Under the pieces are notes generated by a model. The model saw only the letters and a list, made by a program, of their open reading frames with translations. It was not told where the DNA came from and did not search any database. Below, piece by piece: positions 11,139 through 18,428 of a stretch of 37,658 nt of DNA. Within the stretch, counting starts at the first letter, position 1, and each line of letters begins with the position of its first letter. Position numbers and translations under genes: made by a program. The stretch spans positions 1-37,658 of the forward strand of contig JAEOSU010000061.1 of NCBI GenBank assembly GCA_016840165.1. Reading direction: 5' to 3'. This DNA comes from Promethearchaeota archaeon. Its GTDB lineage: Archaea > Asgardarchaeota > Lokiarchaeia > Sigyniarchaeales > SOKP01.

Positions 11139-14054
11139 GTGAAAAAAATAGAAGGTTTGATTTTAAGCGGTAACTACGAGAAAGCCGCAGATGATTTGTT
11201 TTATATCATTTCTAGAAATCAAAAATCAGATTCAAATAAAGAATTAGTCTATAAAAGTTTAAATCTCTTAAATAAAATTTGCGATAAATCACCTTCAATT
11301 TCTTTAAGAGCCGTTAAGCTAATCCAAAAATTAGTTAATGATTCCAATTCATGGATAAGACTTGTATCTTTAGAGATTCTATATCAAATCTCATTATATC
11401 GCCCTAATCTACTTATAGATCTGATAGATAGTATTAAAAATCGATTTTATGACAATGAAGCAGTAGTAAAACGATTAGCGGTAAAAATAATCGGTAACCT
11501 AATATTGTCCTTACACATTGATAAAGATGAACTCTATAAAATTATTGATGAATTTAATTCAAAACTATTAGATAATGATTGGAAAGTTAAATTGCAGGTG
11601 ATGAAAACTCTTAAAAAGATTTTAAATCAAGATTACACTAAAATCCCTGATTTTGAACCATTGTTATCCATAATAATTGTAAACTTACGTGATGATGACG
11701 ATGATGTAGCAAGATCTGCCGCAGAATTGCTCAAAATACTTGGGACGTATTTCTTATCAAAAGAAAAGATCATGTATGTGCTGTTAAATCTCTTATATAA
11801 TGAAGAATCTCGAGTTAAAGAATTAATAATTTGGTTATTTGGAGAGATAGGAAAAGAAAAGAGTTCTGAAATCATCCCTGTAATTCCCAAATTAATAGCG
11901 CTTCTAAAAGAAGACGATTATAGAATCCAACTGCGTGTAATTGATGCGTTAGTTAGCATTTCAAAAAATAATTTTGATCAAATTTGGGCAAATTTAATAA
12001 ATGCTTTATACTCCAGTGATTTTGAATATCGAAATGTTATCATTAACGCTCTTTATCACTTGAGTCAAAATAATATTATTGAAGTATTTAATTACGTATT
12101 TGAAGAGTTGGAAAATCCTTCTGAAAATGTACGAGATGCTGTAGCGTTAGTATTTAAGAGATTATACGAGGAATACCAATTAGAAATAGAAAATGAAATT
12201 ACAAAAATCCTTTACACCTTAGAATCAAAGTATTGGAGAGAACGAGAGAAAACCATATTACTTCTTCGAAATATCTGTTTAATCTTAGAAAGTAAGAAGG
12301 TCGCAGTCTGGATCTTCATTGAATTAGAAAAGACTCTTAATGATGAGACAGATCCCGATGTTAAAGATGAAATTCTATATACATTAAAAAGTATTAAACA
12401 ATTGTTTAGCAATATCCATGAGACCATTGAAAAAGTAAATGAAGAATTAGCAGCATTTCGGAGAAAAATTCGGGAATTTCAAAGAATCCCTGCCGATTTT
12501 CGAGAAAAAATGAATGCTTATATAAGGGATTTTAAGTTTCGCGATACAGAGATCGAATTAGATAAAATATATCGCAAATCATTGACAAAAATTAAAAAGT
12601 TCAATAAAAAAATTAATAAGTTTGATTACAAGCGATTAGCTTTTAATTTAATTGAAGATTGGGAAGAAACCAAGGTTAATATTATTGATGAGCTTAGCAT
12701 TATAAAGGGATTTATTTCTGAAGTATTTGAAGAGAAAAAAAAGGAATATACCATAAGCATTCAATCAAGAGTAAAAAATTTACAAGATCGTATCAAAATT
12801 TTAAAAGCTCAGTATGAGGATCTCAAGGAATACACCTTTCCCGATGATTTAGATCAAATATTATTGAGTAATACCCAAGATAAGGATCTTAAAGAGAAGT
12901 TTTTTGAAATAACTCAACTGAGAAATTACCTTTTTAACCTTGATGATGATATCCGCGAAGATTTAGTTGACAATGTTGAATTCAACGAAATATATAAAAA
13001 TTTATTACGAAATTGGGTTAGTACAAAAATAGAAATTCAAGAGTATCTCAGTGATTTGGACCGTAAAATAAAGATTGTAAAGGATAAAGTTATTGATTAT
13101 TTTGTTGATATTCGTAATCGCAAAGAAGTTGTTGAGGACCTAAAAGTAAATAATATTCAAAATGAAATGGGATTTCAACTATTTCAAGGGCATATTCAAA
13201 ACCTTATTACTCAATCTATCGAGGGATTTAAAAAGTTCAATAATCAATTTGAGAATTTAGATTTGAAAATTAAAGTATTGATAAAGAAAAATGAATTTTC
13301 AGATGTGAAAAAATTAATCGAAATGAATACATCACAGATACAATTATTTATTGAAGAGAGTGAAAACCGAATAGATAATATCATAGGAAAAATTACTGAA
13401 GATAATAATATTTTCAATCTCTTTATTCGACCCTATATAACTAAATTTATAGATACCAAGGAAATGCTGATAAATAAGTTAAAAACTTTTAATAAAAGAA
13501 GTAATGATAAACTCTTACTCGCTCAGATTAAATTTTACCTAGAAATTACTAATCGAATCAAACTCAAGAATCTTGCTTCCTACACCGAATTGGATTCAGA
13601 ATTCTTGAAAGAAGAAGTTCTAAAATTTATTCGAAAAAATAATCTAAATGCTAAAATAATTGATGATTATTTATACAGTCCCGAACAGGAGGAAGTTTTA
13701 GAAGCAAAAGATTTGCTTTTCTTTAAAAATATCAAATCGATCGGTAATAAGATTTATTTCAATTTTAAGTTGAACAATCCTACAAATTTACTTTTTAAGG
13801 ATTTGCAAATAGCCTTAAAAGCTCCTCCTTATTTACAATATCTTAAAAAAGAAAGCTTTCCTATGCTTCTGTTTCTTGATGAGTTGAAATCGGGAAATGT
13901 ATTTAAATTCAATTATGTGTTTAAAATTATCCGAGAAAGTGAAAGAAAAATTACAGACCACAGGGTAGATGAAGTAACTCTTAAATTATACTATAAAGAT
14001 CCCTTCAACATAAACCGAAAAATTACAAAAAAAATTAACCTCCTCCTTCCTTAG
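11139..14054 (+). CDS. HEAT-repeat protein with coiled-coil middle and C-terminal beta-rich domain
   Basis: Multiple HEAT units (LVNDSNSWIR, LLDNDWKVK, LRDDDDDVAR, LKEDDYRIQ, LENPSENVR); C-terminus beta-strand rich (FNFKLNNPT, LKLYYKDPF). Confidence 0.8.
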   Translation: MKKIEGLILSGNYEKAADDLFYIISRNQKSDSNKELVYKSLNLLNKICDKSPSISLRAVKLIQKLVNDSNSWIRLVSLEILYQISLYRPNLLIDLIDSIKNRFYDNEAVVKRLAVKIIGNLILSLHIDKDELYKIIDEFNSKLLDNDWKVKLQVMKTLKKILNQDYTKIPDFEPLLSIIIVNLRDDDDDVARSAAELLKILGTYFLSKEKIMYVLLNLLYNEESRVKELIIWLFGEIGKEKSSEIIPVIPKLIALLKEDDYRIQLRVIDALVSISKNNFDQIWANLINALYSSDFEYRNVIINALYHLSQNNIIEVFNYVFEELENPSENVRDAVALVFKRLYEEYQLEIENEITKILYTLESKYWREREKTILLLRNICLILESKKVAVWIFIELEKTLNDETDPDVKDEILYTLKSIKQLFSNIHETIEKVNEELAAFRRKIREFQRIPADFREKMNAYIRDFKFRDTEIELDKIYRKSLTKIKKFNKKINKFDYKRLAFNLIEDWEETKVNIIDELSIIKGFISEVFEEKKKEYTISIQSRVKNLQDRIKILKAQYEDLKEYTFPDDLDQILLSNTQDKDLKEKFFEITQLRNYLFNLDDDIREDLVDNVEFNEIYKNLLRNWVSTKIEIQEYLSDLDRKIKIVKDKVIDYFVDIRNRKEVVEDLKVNNIQNEMGFQLFQGHIQNLITQSIEGFKKFNNQFENLDLKIKVLIKKNEFSDVKKLIEMNTSQIQLFIEESENRIDNIIGKITEDNNIFNLFIRPYITKFIDTKEMLINKLKTFNKRSNDKLLLAQIKFYLEITNRIKLKNLASYTELDSEFLKEEVLKFIRKNNLNAKIIDDYLYSPEQEEVLEAKDLLFFKNIKSIGNKIYFNFKLNNPTNLLFKDLQIALKAPPYLQYLKKESFPMLLFLDELKSGNVFKFNYVFKIIRESERKITDHRVDEVTLKLYYKDPFNINRKITKKINLLLP

Positions 14055-14190
14055 GATTTGTGGCAACCTAAATCATGTTATTTTTAAAATATTACCGTAC
14101 CTATCGATAACTTCGATAAATACTATTAAATAAATTAATAAATCAATAAATATTACTTTTCAAATAAAATATATACGTTGCAAGTAGATT

Positions 14191-14706
14191 ATGACAATGG
14201 GTACTAAATACAAGATTAGTAAAATTATTAAAATTCCGGCATTTCTGGGTATCCTTATTGGATTTTTTGCTGCTTTAGTTCAAGCATTAATTATTAGTGC
14301 TGGTGGACCGGAAGCGTATGGATTTTGTGTTGCTTGCCATACTAGAGACTTAGTGAATGCCTTTTTTAACGCATTTACAGGTGATAGTTTGGGAATTGCT
14401 CCAGTTTCTATGGTTACTCCTGTTCTCACAATTATCGGCGTTATTATTGGAGGTTATATTGCCGCTACAAGAAACAAAGAATTTAAAGTAAAAAAGACAA
14501 AACCAATCATCTATCTCCTTTATTTTCTAGGAGGAATCGCTGTTTTAAATCTCGCATTATTATTAGGTGCATGCCCTTACAGAGTTGCCTTAAGGTTTGC
14601 ATATGGTGACTTAATTGCATTAATAGGGGTCCTCTCAATTGCGGGAGGAGTCGCAGTAGGTGTATTAATCCTTCTTTTTATAATGAAAAGGAGGGATTTT
14701 AATTAA
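14191..14706 (+). CDS. YeeE/YedE-family S/Se transporter, N-terminal half
   Basis: Hydrophobic, YGFCVACHTRD and LGACPYR motifs. Confidence 0.85.
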   Translation: MTMGTKYKISKIIKIPAFLGILIGFFAALVQALIISAGGPEAYGFCVACHTRDLVNAFFNAFTGDSLGIAPVSMVTPVLTIIGVIIGGYIAATRNKEFKVKKTKPIIYLLYFLGGIAVLNLALLLGACPYRVALRFAYGDLIALIGVLSIAGGVAVGVLILLFIMKRRDFN

Positions 14707-15215
14707 TGGCAGACGGATTCTTAGTTTCTTCAGCAGCTATTATAATCATTCCCTTGGTAACACTTGCATTAGGCTTTCTGATTGGTTATCTTGCTCAGAG
14801 GTCAGGATTTTGTTCGATTGGTGGTATGAGAGATCTTATGATGTTTAAACACACTCGATTATTTTTCGGATATCTTGCCTTAATTGGGGGAGGATTCTTA
14901 GGATATTTACTTTTTTGGGCAATTATTCCTAGTGCGTTTCCTAACTTTCTCTGGTCAGTTACTCAATCTAACCCCCTCACTCCAATTCCAGGGGCTCCAG
15001 GAGGTTTATCTATAATTTCTTATGTATTATTAGCAATTATTGGGGGATTTGGCATGGGATTTATCGGAGTACTACTTGGTGGTTGTCCTTTAAGACAAAT
15101 CGTGATGGGGACCGAGGGAAATTTGCGATCGTTATTTTATATCTTAGGATTGGTCATTGGTGCGATAATCTTTCACGTTTGGGTAATTGAACTAGTAGTT
15201 GCAATACTCCCTTAA
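14706..15215 (+). CDS. YeeE/YedE-family S/Se transporter, C-terminal half
   Basis: QRSGFCSIGGMRD and LGGCPLRQ motifs; TAATG stop/start overlap with the previous gene. Confidence 0.88.
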   Translation: MADGFLVSSAAIIIIPLVTLALGFLIGYLAQRSGFCSIGGMRDLMMFKHTRLFFGYLALIGGGFLGYLLFWAIIPSAFPNFLWSVTQSNPLTPIPGAPGGLSIISYVLLAIIGGFGMGFIGVLLGGCPLRQIVMGTEGNLRSLFYILGLVIGAIIFHVWVIELVVAILP

Positions 15216-15235
15216 TATAAAAGAGGTAAATAAAC

Positions 15236-15463
15236 ATGGTAGAATACAAATTAGATATTTTGGGGAAAGTTTGTCCTTACTGCTTATTAGCAGTCAGGAA
15301 TGAGATGAAAAAATTATCTCTTGGAGACACATTGGTAGTGCTTACTGATCATCCACCTGCAGCCACTGATACAATTCCTTATGATATGAAAAAAAAAGGG
15401 AATGAGATATCCTCTAAAAAATTACAACCCGGAATCTGGGAATTAACCATAACAAAAAAATAG
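15236..15463 (+). CDS. TusA/SirA/YedF-family sulfur carrier
   Basis: LDILGKVCPY, LVVLTDHPPA; SD GAGGT. Confidence 0.9.
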   Translation: MVEYKLDILGKVCPYCLLAVRNEMKKLSLGDTLVVLTDHPPAATDTIPYDMKKKGNEISSKKLQPGIWELTITKK

Positions 15464-15479
15464 ATTAATATAGACAATT

Positions 15480-16664
15480 ATGACCACGATTAAAATATTT
15501 TTTCTTTTTTTTGATAAATTGAGTAAAGAACGATTAGAATGGTTAATGGCTGTATTAAATTATCTAAATAATCAAGAAAGATCTCCTCATTATGAAATAA
15601 CCTTTTTTTTAAGTGGAGAAAGTCTCTATAGTTTATTAGATAAAAGGATGAGTGATATATGGATCAAAATTTTGAAAATCCCTCAGATCAAGCTTTTTCT
15701 TGATCATCATGAACTTAAGATATTAGGTCTTCCAGTTGATATATTGCATAAAAGATATTTAGATTCAATAAGTTTATCTCTTGAAGACTTAGATAATAGA
15801 TTTAGCTTTTGGGATCTAATAATAGAGAAAATAATGAAACAGCAATTTGATTCACGAATCGGTCTCTTACAAAATGATGGACCGTATATGCATAGAACAT
15901 CCGTATATTCTGTGCGATTAATGAATGCCGCTATTAATAGAAATCTTAACACTGAATTTTATGGTTATCTTGATGGAGTACATCTTGGTCATAAAGGTCA
16001 AAAACCATCTGAATTTGAAAATATCTCTCAATCACTTTTAGATATTAAACAGAAAGCAAATGAAAAAAAATTAGAATTTTCAATGCTTTCCTGTACCCGC
16101 TGTGGAACAGCAAGAGGTTACATTCGCTCTCAATCCACTAACGAGTATTATTTATCAGATGATACTATTCCTCATTATATGTTTTGTAATCTAAATAAAA
16201 TAATAGATCAATTTGAAAAGCAACATCCTATAATCTCCTCTAATTCTGCATTAATCATCTATGATCCTCAAAAAAATGAAGCAAGACCACAATTAACTAT
16301 CTTTATTACACGTAGTCCTTATGCCTCTGAATGGACTTTTGGGGGCGTATCATTTGCAATAGCAAGTGCCACTCATGATATATCGACACAAGTTATATTC
16401 CTTGAAAATGGAGTTTATGGACTGATTGGAGAACATCAAATTAATGAAAAAGAAAAAATCTTTAATATACAAGATATTTTAGAAGCCACAGCAGATTTGA
16501 AAAATCTTAAGTTCTATGCTCACGCACCATCCTTAGAAAAAAGAAATATATTCCTCTCAAAAACGTTAAAAAATGTATCACTTCTCAATAATGAGGATTT
16601 AGCGAATATGGTATTAAAAAATAATCGAAAAGGTTTATACCATAAAAGAATTATATTTTTTTAA
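15480..16664 (+). CDS. Multi-domain DsrE/DsrF-like sulfur relay protein
   Basis: Three DsrE-fold-like segments (FFLSGESLY; GPYM...YLDGVH...SCTRCGTARG; RSPYASE...FLENGVY...SLEKR). Confidence 0.75.
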   Translation: MTTIKIFFLFFDKLSKERLEWLMAVLNYLNNQERSPHYEITFFLSGESLYSLLDKRMSDIWIKILKIPQIKLFLDHHELKILGLPVDILHKRYLDSISLSLEDLDNRFSFWDLIIEKIMKQQFDSRIGLLQNDGPYMHRTSVYSVRLMNAAINRNLNTEFYGYLDGVHLGHKGQKPSEFENISQSLLDIKQKANEKKLEFSMLSCTRCGTARGYIRSQSTNEYYLSDDTIPHYMFCNLNKIIDQFEKQHPIISSNSALIIYDPQKNEARPQLTIFITRSPYASEWTFGGVSFAIASATHDISTQVIFLENGVYGLIGEHQINEKEKIFNIQDILEATADLKNLKFYAHAPSLEKRNIFLSKTLKNVSLLNNEDLANMVLKNNRKGLYHKRIIFF

Positions 16665-16699
16665 GTAAAATAAATAGAATTAAGTATAGATTAATAAAA

Positions 16700-16933
16700 A
16701 TGGTCACTCTTGAAACATACGACTTTACCGATCTTACTTGTACGAATCTAATGATCAAGCTTAAGATCCTTCTAAAAAAGTTACCTGTGGGAGAGCAACT
16801 AAATTTTTATTCTAACCGTGAACAATATGATAATATCAGAAAGCCATTTGCGAAGGATCCTTATAAATTACAAGGAGAACAATTGGGAGATAATCGATAC
16901 TTAGTTGCAATACTCAAAAATTCCAAGAGGTGA
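16700..16933 (+). CDS. Divergent TusA-like small protein
   Basis: YDFTDLTC at the position of TusA LDxxGxxC; 77 aa; LPVGEQL. Confidence 0.6.
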   Translation: MVTLETYDFTDLTCTNLMIKLKILLKKLPVGEQLNFYSNREQYDNIRKPFAKDPYKLQGEQLGDNRYLVAILKNSKR

Positions 16934-16941
16934 TATATTCA

Positions 16942-17298
16942 ATGTCAAAAATACATGACCCTCTTATTATTCATCTTGTATTTACTCGAAATCATCAAAA
17001 ATATATCTTATTTTCGTTAAGTTCATTGAATTATGAATACTTATATGTCTATCACATGAAAAAACCAATTCGTTCTCTATTTTATGGAGAGAATTTTCAA
17101 GGTTTAATATCAACACTATTACAAGATACAACAGTGGATTGCATTGAATGTTCTTTGGGTCCAAATATGATAGGTGGGGTATCTATTGATGGTGATCAAC
17201 AAGTTCTTAACAAGATGTCTCTTGAAGAATGTAATACCATCTTAGCACGACTAAAAGTAGAGCTAAAACGTTCTTTAGACATAGTAGTTCCTTTTTAA
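16942..17298 (+). CDS. Hypothetical protein with CxxC
   Basis: ATG 16942 follows SD GAGGTGA (the track's GTG 16930 lies inside the SD); DCIECSLG. Confidence 0.65.
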   Translation: MSKIHDPLIIHLVFTRNHQKYILFSLSSLNYEYLYVYHMKKPIRSLFYGENFQGLISTLLQDTTVDCIECSLGPNMIGGVSIDGDQQVLNKMSLEECNTILARLKVELKRSLDIVVPF

Positions 17299-17327
17299 AA
17301 AATATGTAAAATAAAAGTGAGGTGAAA

Positions 17328-18356
17328 ATGCAAGAAAAAAGTGAGTATCGACTTACTTCACAGGTAAAAATACATGGATGAAGTTGCAAACTCGGACCAA
17401 CGGATTTACGAGATCTGCTAGTAAAAACTGGATTAGCGGGAGATATTGAAGATGCTGCACTAGTACCAATTCCAAAAACAGATTTGGTTCTGGTAAAAAA
17501 TATTGATATAATGACTCCAATAGTCGATGAACCAGATATTATGGGAGAAATTGCTGCTTGTAATGTAACAAATGATATTTTTGCATTAAATGTTCCTGAG
17601 ATATCAGGTATGTTGGTATTTTTGGCAATTCCTATAAATATGCCAATAGAGATTGCTGAAGGTATTTTAATAGGGATAAAAAACTTTATGGAAAAGAAAT
17701 TGAACTCACAAGTCGTTGGTGGACACACTATTTATTCAGCATGGCCTCTTACTGGAGGAGAAGCAAGTGGATTTGCTCAAAAAGACGACATCATCCCTAA
17801 AAATGGCGTAAAAAATGGTGACAAATTAATTTTAACGAAACCCATTGGCCTGCAGGCAATCATGGCGGCTTATCGTGTCTTAAAAGATTTTCCAGATTTT
17901 TTAGAGCAATATTCTCAACCAGAACTTAAAAAATCTATTGATTTTGCCATCAAACTAATGACAACTTCTAATCAAGATGTAGTTAAAACCATACACAGCT
18001 ATGAAGATTTTTCTTTTGTGCATGCGATGTCGGATGTAACTGGATTTGGTTTGGCAGGTCATCTTGAAGAAATGCTCCAACATTCAAACTTATCTGCCTT
18101 AATCACAAAAACACCTTCAATCACACTTTCTAAAAGCCTTTCTGAGGAATTAGGTTATTCTTTTGATGATTGCACTTGCCATGAAACTGCGGGAGGTATG
18201 ATAATTTCTGTGGATCCTGCTCGGACTGAAGATTTCTCCGATAAGCTTACTCGAAATGGCGTTAGAAACTGGATTATTGGGGAGATTGATAAGTTCAAGC
18301 CTAGAACGGTACGAGTTTCTGATGATGTCCAAAATGTTGAAGTATCATATCTTTAG
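17328..18356 (+). CDS. selD: Selenophosphate synthetase, selenoprotein (Sec encoded by TGA 17379-17381), 342 aa
   Basis: SD GAGGTGA 17319-17325, ATG 17328, MQEKSEYRLTSQVKIHG-U-SCKLGP in frame with the 17484 ORF; EDAA, GGHT, ILTKPIG, DVTGFGLAGH, ETAGG. Confidence 0.95.
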
Positions 18357-18428
18357 AGATGTCTATGAAGTGAGCTTAAACACGAAAGTGAGGGCTTACA
18401 GAGAATTACACTTGCCCAGTGGCATCTC
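18356..18428 (+). promoter_or_regulatory. Eukaryote-type (form 2) SECIS element in selD 3' UTR
   Basis: Lower stem GAGATGTC/GGCATCTC; core ATGAA 18365-18369 / AGAG 18400-18403; stem GTGAGCTT/GGGCTTAC; unpaired AAA 18378-18380; mini-stem CAC-GAAA-GTG. Confidence 0.88.

Follow-up and report, generated by a model that had tools for sequence, protein, structure and literature searches.

A split YedE, TusA, and multi-DsrE cassette upstream of a selenocysteine-containing selD in Promethearchaeota: a candidate selenium relay

Described systems and the selD cassette

The membrane protein YedE, the carrier YedF, and the regulator LysR_Se are known to co-occur with the selenophosphate synthetase SelD, and YedE is known to be split in archaea (Zhang 2008; Lin et al. 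2015, PMC5322559; NCBIfam models TIGR04112, TIGR03527, and NF040786). A second group of relatives is formed by the YTD, or yeeE-tusA-dsrEFH type II, gene clusters (PMC8780430, PMC13293266). A transporter specific for selenium is not known from any organism (PMC11097638), and the uptake of selenium and its handover to SelD without release of toxic free selenide are an open problem. Here we analyzed a 37,658-nt stretch of DNA from a Promethearchaeota archaeon (contig JAEOSU010000061.1 of assembly GCA_016840165.1), hereafter the window, in which positions 14191-18356 of the plus strand hold seven co-directional genes in the order yedE_N, yedE_C, tusA1, dsrE3, tusA2, a gene for a CxxC protein, and selD, followed by a selenocysteine insertion sequence (SECIS) element. 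All seven genes that the initial annotation had placed here, co-directional and with gaps of 35 nt or less, are present on the plus strand (intergenic gaps of -1, 20, 16, 35, 8, and 29 nt), and so are all of the cysteine motifs that it had listed. Those checked across 10-33 orthologues (CVAC, GACP, GFC, GGCP, CP[YF]C, C-x-R-C, LTC, and C-x-E-C, that is, all except the U-S-C of SelD) proved invariant or nearly so. The six genes preceding selD, referred to below as the cassette, form a block that is found with an unchanged gene order in more than 20 genomes; therefore, this order is not due to chance.

With the YedE/YedF/LysR_Se neighborhood, the locus shares a split YedE, a TusA/SirA-like carrier, a DsrE-like domain, and selD, as well as seleno_YedE as the best transporter model and, in sister genomes, a LysR_Sec_metab-type regulator. 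In contrast to YedF, which is a fusion of TusA and DsrE (CGXC), the window encodes a free TusA (CP[YF]C) and a 394-aa multi-DsrE chain; it also has two extra small cysteine proteins, TusA2 and the CxxC orphan, no Sec lyase or DUF3343 gene was seen in the cluster, homologous cassettes occur in methanogens without SelD, and the family scores lie below the curated cut-offs. The YTD clusters have the same gene order, with a YedE-like transporter, TusA, a DsrE with one active cysteine, and small conserved genes, and their DsrEFH-like body also has its counterpart here. However, the DsrE-fold units of the window are fused in one chain, the first of them without detectable DsrH similarity, whereas the DsrEFH/TusBCD heterotrimer consists of separate E, F, and H subunits. 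Furthermore, the trailing small genes are TusA-like and the CxxC orphan rather than DsrF and DsrH, no DsrC or DsrAB was found, the unit ends in selD, and the transporter is a selenium-type YedE. The initial annotation had ranked the locus as a candidate for an undescribed system, which went too far, as both the split archaeal YedE, YedF, and LysR_Se beside selD (PMC5322559) and the YTD/dsrEFH type II cluster (PMC8780430, PMC13293266) are in print. The YedE/YedF/LysR_Se-SelD association, the split archaeal YedE, selenocysteine (Sec)-containing selD with a type II SECIS, and tandem selD genes have thus been published (PMC5322559, PMC11227280); new are the single-chain DsrE body, the TusA2 and CxxC families that persist beside selD, the common operator, and the contrast with a sulfur-type sister operon. 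As far as the Asgard selenoproteome and review literature was checked, YedE, TusA, and DsrE carriers in Asgard archaea are not mentioned.

Our preferred reading, which we hold with slightly better than even confidence, is that the cassette is a YTD-like chalcogen import-and-relay system that has been built into the selD unit in one archaeal family (f1), where it would supply selenium to SelD. In the scheme that we infer, as to substrate, order of transfer, and co-transcription, the two YedE halves would together make up a channel of 10 helices, lined by four invariant cysteine motifs, and would import reduced or thiol-bound selenium. TusA1 would accept the selenium at the cytoplasmic face through its CP[YF]C site, as a perselenide or a Cys-Se-Cys bridge, and would pass it to Cys205 of the single-chain multi-DsrE protein, from which TusA2 and the CxxC protein would deliver it to the Sec/Cys site of SelD for the synthesis of selenophosphate and, ultimately, Sec-tRNA. 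A single promoter, following a palindromic operator of the LysR type, would drive the entire unit.

Transporter halves, carriers, and the multi-DsrE protein

The genes yedE_N (14191-14706, plus strand) and yedE_C (14706-15215, plus strand), which overlap by 1 nt, encode the N- and C-terminal halves of a split YedE/YeeE-family membrane protein. Both halves exceed the gathering cut-off of the Pfam family PF04143 (Sulf_transp; 31.3 and 27.8 bits vs the cut-off of 27 bits). Against the NCBIfam models, yedE_N scored 65.8 bits with seleno_YedE (TIGR04112) compared to 13.9-19.4 bits with TsuA, and yedE_C scored 71.8 bits compared to 22.3 bits; by these model scores, the halves are closer to the selenium-type branch than to the thiosulfate transporter TsuA. 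Alignment of 10 orthologues revealed the invariant motifs AYGFCVACHxRD and G(A/G)CPYR in yedE_N, and the orthologues of yedE_C share SGFCSIGG and GGCPLRQ, so that together the halves hold five invariant cysteines in four GFC/GxCP motifs. The nearest bacterial relatives of YedE_C are from Veillonella and Clostridia.

Two TusA-type carriers are encoded in the cassette. TusA1 (15236-15463, plus strand; 75 aa) is a TusA/YedF-like protein with a clear match to Pfam TusA (PF01206; 57.4 bits vs the cut-off of 28.6 bits), in which CP[YF]C replaces the usual CPxP active site in all 12 orthologues that cover it (a 13th is incomplete). Its best NCBIfam match is YedF NF008242 (41.9 bits; cut-off 79), followed at a distance by TIGR03527 (15.3 bits; cut-off 110), and it consists of a single domain rather than the TusA and DsrE fusion typical of YedF. 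TusA2 (16700-16933, plus strand; 77 aa) is more divergent and matched Pfam TusA below the cut-off (18 bits, E = 0.0026). When an alignment of 14 TusA2 orthologues was compared to the TusA1 set by hhalign, the two matched over their full length (76.9%, E = 2e-5), and the invariant cysteine of the LTCTN motif of TusA2 fell on the TusA1 cysteine; judged by this profile comparison, TusA2 is a true relative with a predicted TusA fold.

The dsrE3 gene (15480-16664, plus strand) encodes a single-chain multi-DsrE protein of 394 aa, with the Pfam DsrE domain assigned to residues 272-382. An AlphaFold2 model of DsrE3 was obtained at a predicted local distance difference test score (pLDDT) of 89.7 and a predicted template-modeling score of 0.91. 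Residues 124-254, the middle unit, superpose on YchN (Z 15.0, root-mean-square deviation 1.7 over 115 aligned residues), DsrE (2hy5_A, Z 14.1), and TusD (2d1p_A, Z 13.8). In an hhalign comparison with a 33-member profile, this unit matched the stand-alone DsrE of a relative (95.8%), and Cys205, which lies in the CSRCGTARGY motif and is invariant in 33 sequences, coincided with the cysteine of that protein. The last unit is TusC/DsrF-like according to NCBIfam and aligned with DsrF at 43.6% by hhalign. The first unit is an alpha/beta domain whose sequence resembles neither DsrH nor the other units; with the latter it has only the position of an F-x-L-x-G-D motif in common (FFLTGDALYSL, YLDGVHLGH, and IFIEDGVYGL in the three units). 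This motif position and the alpha/beta pattern are all that hints at an affinity with them. No significant similarity between any two units was found by hhalign; therefore, the description as three DsrE units is based on structure and on the family matches of units 2 and 3 only. A DsrH-DsrE-DsrF fusion was considered and not adopted, as DsrH aligned weakly to unit 3 and not to unit 1. DsrE3 had no YedF match among the NCBIfam models. The family is small: when 1.84 billion representatives were searched exhaustively with a profile, 211 matches were obtained (~45 of full length), and all named relatives among them were Asgard metagenome-assembled genomes (MAGs), while a later genome search found the fusion in Methanoregulaceae too.

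The CxxC gene (16942-17298, plus strand) encodes a 118-aa protein that belongs to no Pfam or NCBIfam family. The gene itself was confirmed, and its proposed GTG start at 16930 was replaced by the ATG at 16942 as the most likely one, which matches the orthologues and stands behind an AGGTGA sequence. C67, E69, and C70 (C-x-E-C) are invariant among the orthologues, which fall into 36 database clusters without annotation, every named one from Promethearchaeota/Lokiarchaeota. The AlphaFold2 model of the protein reached a pLDDT of 86; a wide structure search of the PDB gave no clear fold relative (best Z 5.7), and a search of the ESM Atlas gave no usable match.

Position, predicted operator, and distribution of the cassette

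In family f1, selD lies on a conserved backbone formed by a 971-aa HEAT-repeat gene, selD, a convergent CinA gene, and a 182-aa gene. The HEAT-repeat gene and selD are either direct neighbors or separated by a second selD, by a solitary CxxC gene, or by the entire six-gene cassette. The full cassette stands immediately before selD in at least 10 genomes from 4 genera, and its co-directional orientation with selD was established in eight genomes and at two further MAG loci. In four genomes, the CxxC gene alone is left directly upstream of selD after loss of the rest of the cassette, and in another decayed locus (G070) only a DsrE3 remnant and TusA2 precede selD. One genome of another family carries the cassette adjacent to selD in divergent orientation. 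The link to selD claimed by the initial annotation thus holds for f1 and for this divergent pair, and not for most genomes of two sister families, f2 and f4, in which the cassette is unlinked. The idea that each tandem selD pair hides a CxxC gene was dropped, as most of the spacers had no match to the CxxC profile.

A perfect palindrome, TATCGA-N5-TCGATA, was found at 14102-14118, 72 nt upstream of yedE_N and outside the range given by the initial annotation, and is a predicted operator. In front of the cassettes of other genomes, its arms are conserved between divergent flanks. When one mismatch is allowed, more than 20 f1 genomes have the palindrome before their selD unit, at a distance of 70-160 nt from the first gene, and it heads the unit alike whether this consists of selD alone, tandem selD, CxxC and selD, or the cassette and selD. 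In the ~85 kb scanned, ~0.5 sites were expected and 11 were seen in selD loci, all of them upstream of selD. In a genome-wide search for a regulon, the 3.6-Mb host genome was found to contain the palindrome twice in exact form (the sole further copy at C29:46117) and 21 times with at most one mismatch. Since cassette-less and cassette-bearing selD units have the predicted operator in common, the cassette is, as far as can be read from these sites, inside the selD regulatory unit. The palindrome also has the form ATC-N9-GAT, which we take to be a LysR-type box, and the regulator acting at 14102-14118 would accordingly be of the LysR type. A scan with bacterial promoter and terminator models returned 14 sites compared to 21.7 expected; the models are bacterial and the host is archaeal, so this result is uninformative.

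The unlinked cassettes of f2 adjoin a LysR gene in four genomes (G032, G025, G036, and Ca. Lokiarchaeum ossiferum). The best NCBIfam family of this LysR protein is LysR_Sec_metab, with 162 bits compared to 108 bits for the runner-up and to a cut-off of 250. The host genome has its own, closer LysR_Sec_metab homologue (222 bits, also short of 250) at positions 1680-2579 of contig C94, a 2.8-kb contig on which the gene is paired divergently with a gene for a 77-aa TusA-like protein (LVCPLP), the pair spanning 1347-2579. The intergenic region between these two genes contains a TTATTA-N9-TAATAA repeat that resembles sites beside the f2 cassettes. Inspection by eye of the upstream regions of the f2 cassette and of f2 selD, both AT-rich, revealed no convincing common site.

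In f2, the CxxC gene moves with the cassette, away from selD. Behind the f2 cassette lies an AhpD/CMD-family gene (L059:6471-6884 in G032; also at L060 in G025); its best matches in NCBIfam are to peroxidase-like proteins with links to selenoproteins and to the biosynthesis of arsenosugars. In one f2 genus, the CxxC gene is solitary at four loci; at one of them (L087, in G038), it stands between an OsmC-like gene and a TRM5/TYW2 methyltransferase gene on the backbone that holds the full cassette in G032, an arrangement that suggests decay of the cassette with the CxxC gene spared.

Sister species without the cassette possess a separate operon for TusA (CPYP), an unsplit YeeE, DsrE, DsrF, DsrH, and an Lrp-type regulator with a cysteine-rich tail (G002:C116:1144-4404, with similar operons in eight other genomes). 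The YeeE of this operon scored 324 bits with TsuA and 65 bits with seleno_YedE. The operon and the TsuA(YeeE)-TsuB(YeeD) pair have the same folds as the cassette and the same importer-TusA-DsrE logic. In contrast, the YeeE of the sister operon is unsplit, its TusA carries CPYP, and the operon is not near selD, whereas the halves in the window are split, reach only 14-22 bits with TsuA, and are accompanied by a CPYC carrier. None of the sampled genomes of the genus holds both the cassette and a TsuA-type operon. In two of these genomes, small DsrE-like matches with an in-frame TGA were also observed (G005:C95, G005:C108, and G002:C18), which may be DsrE-like selenoproteins.

The named genomes were further searched with the YedE_C profile, which revealed the complete six-gene cassette in Methanoregula MAGs at 35-60% identity and a reduced cassette in Methanolinea MAGs (the YedE halves, DsrE3, and TusA2, without TusA1 and CxxC). 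The Methanoregula cassette has a cysteine-desulfurase/SclA-like gene and a small gene of sulfite-reductase-like type on its upstream side, while the genes downstream encode an acyl-CoA-dehydratase-type activase, a double-cubane reductase (500 bits), and a C_GCAxxG_C_C protein. The flanks of one such locus (CAZQGG010000002.1:48026-58526) recall bacterial selenium islands, and several such flanking families accompany YedE/YedF in bacterial selenium clusters (Table 1, PMC5322559). The best SelD candidate of these methanogens, at 91 bits, was rejected, as it fits ThiL or HypE equally well and has thiamine genes as neighbors.

Selenium, sulfur, and other possible roles of the cassette

Several observations weigh against a supply of selenium to SelD. 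The seleno_YedE equivalog cut-off of 200 bits is missed by the halves even in sum (~138 bits), and all scores with NCBIfam selenium families are below the curated cut-offs; the split and archaeal divergence may explain part of the shortfall of YedE. In f2 and f4, the cassette is kept in order but mostly lies far from selD, by 465 kb in the closed genome of Ca. Harpocratesius repetitus (G032). The linkage in f1 may derive from a single ancestral event. The DsrE3 fusion was found in only 2 of the 25 sampled genomes of the genus and in about 9 of the 301 genomes of the phylum, all of one order; as SelD is present in 153 of the 301, the cassette is not needed for the use of Sec. Phylum-wide co-occurrence with SelD was discarded as a test, being uninformative when the fusion is confined to clades with near-universal SelD. 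Nor are the seleno_YedE-type halves confined to SelD-bearing organisms: homologues of 52-60% identity occur in five Methanoregulaceae genomes, among them complete cassettes, and no SelD over the family cut-off was found in these five. The methanogen homologues must serve another acceptor; therefore, the cassette is not selenium-exclusive. Finally, the homologues studied biochemically (YeeE/YeeD, TusA, and DsrEFH types I and II) all carry sulfur (PMC13293266), and a yedE deletion in M. maripaludis had no clear selenium phenotype (PMC11097638). The initial annotation had described a dedicated selenium relay, an epithet that does not stand, given that about 22 of the 25 species of the genus that use Sec lack the cassette, and given its position in f2 and f4 and the methanogens without SelD. 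It had also counted genes unlinked to selD or present without selenium use as contrary to its proposal, and such cases were in part encountered, the former in the sister families and the latter, as presence without SelD, in the methanogens.

A sulfur relay is the strongest alternative, and a serious one, although we regard it as unlikely. The cassette would then import polysulfide, thiosulfate, or other sulfane sulfur and pass persulfide along the TusA and DsrE cysteines for assimilation, its place before selD being the inherited accident of a single insertion or a result of shared redox regulation. The architecture is that of a YTD cluster, with yedE, tusA, dsrE, and two small conserved genes (PMC8780430, PMC13293266), and recombinant TusA and DsrEFH type II pass sulfur in vitro (PMC13293266). 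The cysteine-desulfurase family and small sulfite-reductase-like genes beside the cassettes of SelD-less Methanoregulaceae, the separation from selD in f2 and f4, and the lack of any sampled genome of the genus with both cassette and TsuA-type operon, as if the two were interchangeable, are likewise in line with sulfur. However, the YedE halves fit the selenium-type model far better than TsuA, and the true TsuA operon is a separate entity in the genus. The predicted operator is that of the selD unit, TusA2 and CxxC stay by selD after loss of the transporter, and LysR_Sec_metab-type genes adjoin the cassettes that are unlinked. In addition, the host genome (99.7% complete) contains no match to DsrC/TusE (TIGR03342) and no DsrA over the cut-off, so that the usual acceptors of DsrE relays were not found, and Sec synthesis is the sole outlet of SelD detected. 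In M. maripaludis, yedE and the TusA/TusD system are upregulated by 4.5-5.3 log2 units (20- to 40-fold) under selenium starvation (PMC11097638).

We continue to favor delivery of selenium to SelD. A bolder version, which we consider unlikely, makes TusA2 and CxxC dedicated selenium donors of SelD, YedE, TusA1, and DsrE3 a selenium-specific uptake line, and a selenium-sensing LysR_Se the switch acting through TATCGA-N5-TCGATA. If true, no organism would have had a selenium pathway defined from the membrane to SelD before this one, which is found in the archaeal lineage closest to eukaryotes.

Alternatively, TusA2 and the CxxC protein could be accessory factors of SelD, engaged for example in redox upkeep of its Sec-Cys site, with the importer, TusA1, and DsrE3 as an unrelated upstream module. 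In several genomes, selD has kept only CxxC or only TusA2 beside it, which fits such a division, as does the Methanolinea cassette, in which DsrE3 and TusA2 persist without TusA1 and CxxC and the parts are thus separable. We find it quite improbable, as the six-gene order is the same in Lokiarchaeia and Methanoregula at 35-60% identity and the CxxC gene of f2 travels with the cassette, away from selD. It is very improbable that YedE expels excess selenium and the carriers sequester reactive selenide instead of feeding SelD: an exporter role for YedE has been raised by Lin et al. (PMC5322559), the C-x-x-C motifs of TusA1, DsrE3, and the CxxC protein could on chemical grounds chelate selenium as Cys-Se-Cys, and the patchy accessory distribution is typical of resistance modules, but co-regulation and a position upstream of the selenium-consuming enzyme fit supply better, M. 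maripaludis yedE is induced by selenium starvation rather than excess (PMC11097638), and the studied members of the YeeE family are importers (PMC13293266).

For the handover of selenium to SelD, the locus offers a compact candidate set, with one active cysteine or C-x-x-C per protein, one operator, and one acceptor, and it would illustrate how a sulfur-type relay (YTD/DsrEFH) can be redirected to another acceptor. The cassette is testable because it is present in the cultured Ca. Lokiarchaeum ossiferum, and the copies in SelD-less methanogens provide a natural control.

selD, its SECIS element, and the host genome

The window is contig C40 of a 3.6-Mb genome, and the named relatives of its proteins are from Promethearchaeota/Lokiarchaeia. 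The genome was confirmed as that of a Sec-using Asgard archaeon by SepSecS and EFSec matches over the cut-off and a PSTK-like gene; SelU was not found in it. The selD gene (17328-18356, plus strand) encodes a selenophosphate synthetase (TIGR00476, 189.4 bits vs the cut-off of 125; PRK14105, 280 bits) with an in-frame TGA at 17379-17381 that is read as Sec in HG-U-SCK. A single in-frame TGA occurs at the same site in the complete selD orthologues of 38 of 41 relatives. The feedback loop through a Sec-containing SelD to which the initial annotation had drawn attention is an already known idea for Sec-type SelD.

The SECIS element (18356-18428, plus strand) lies in the 3' untranslated region (UTR) of selD and is of the eukaryote-like type II. 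Its helix I pairs 18358-18361 with 18423-18426, the AUGA core at 18365-18368 faces the GA at 18401-18402 and is joined by an upper helix, and the apex carries an AAA motif and a mini-stem. The fold energy corresponds to z = -2.2. The predicted element was corroborated by covariation in 33 selD 3' UTRs: in a four-helix model, 92% of the cells are paired, and 14 of the 18 pairs have compensatory changes, while none of 500 shuffles was as good and slid controls were paired at 43% or less. No Rfam SECIS family matched at the gathering threshold or at E values up to 10. The apparent long 3' internal loop at 18409-18421 is a covarying hairpin in the 33 UTRs, commonly with a GCAA-like loop, the stem of which occurs in the variants CCACC/GGTGG, CCGTT/AACGG, CTGTT/AACAG, and ACACC/GGTGT. 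Elements of the eSECIS-like type II are known from Asgard selD genes (PMC11227280), and those described on Sec-type selD have the same AUGA...GA core, unpaired AAA, and mini-stem as the element of the window and likewise belong to a selD with one UGA (Mariotti 2016, PMC4989117; PMC11227280). The additional hairpin on the 3' side may set the element of the window apart from them.

A convergent CinA-like gene starts 6 nt past the SECIS. Upstream of the cassette, the 971-aa HEAT-repeat gene occupies positions 11139-14054 of the window and was also seen at three other loci; it is a neighbor of selD throughout the order, even at 25% identity. Their adjacency is therefore old, and the cassette sits between two long-standing neighbors. 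Many species of this genus were seen to have a pair of Sec-containing selD genes in tandem (~61% identity; 10 loci), each copy with its own SECIS and with the operator between the two, and multiple selD copies have been reported from Loki- and Thorarchaeia (PMC11227280).

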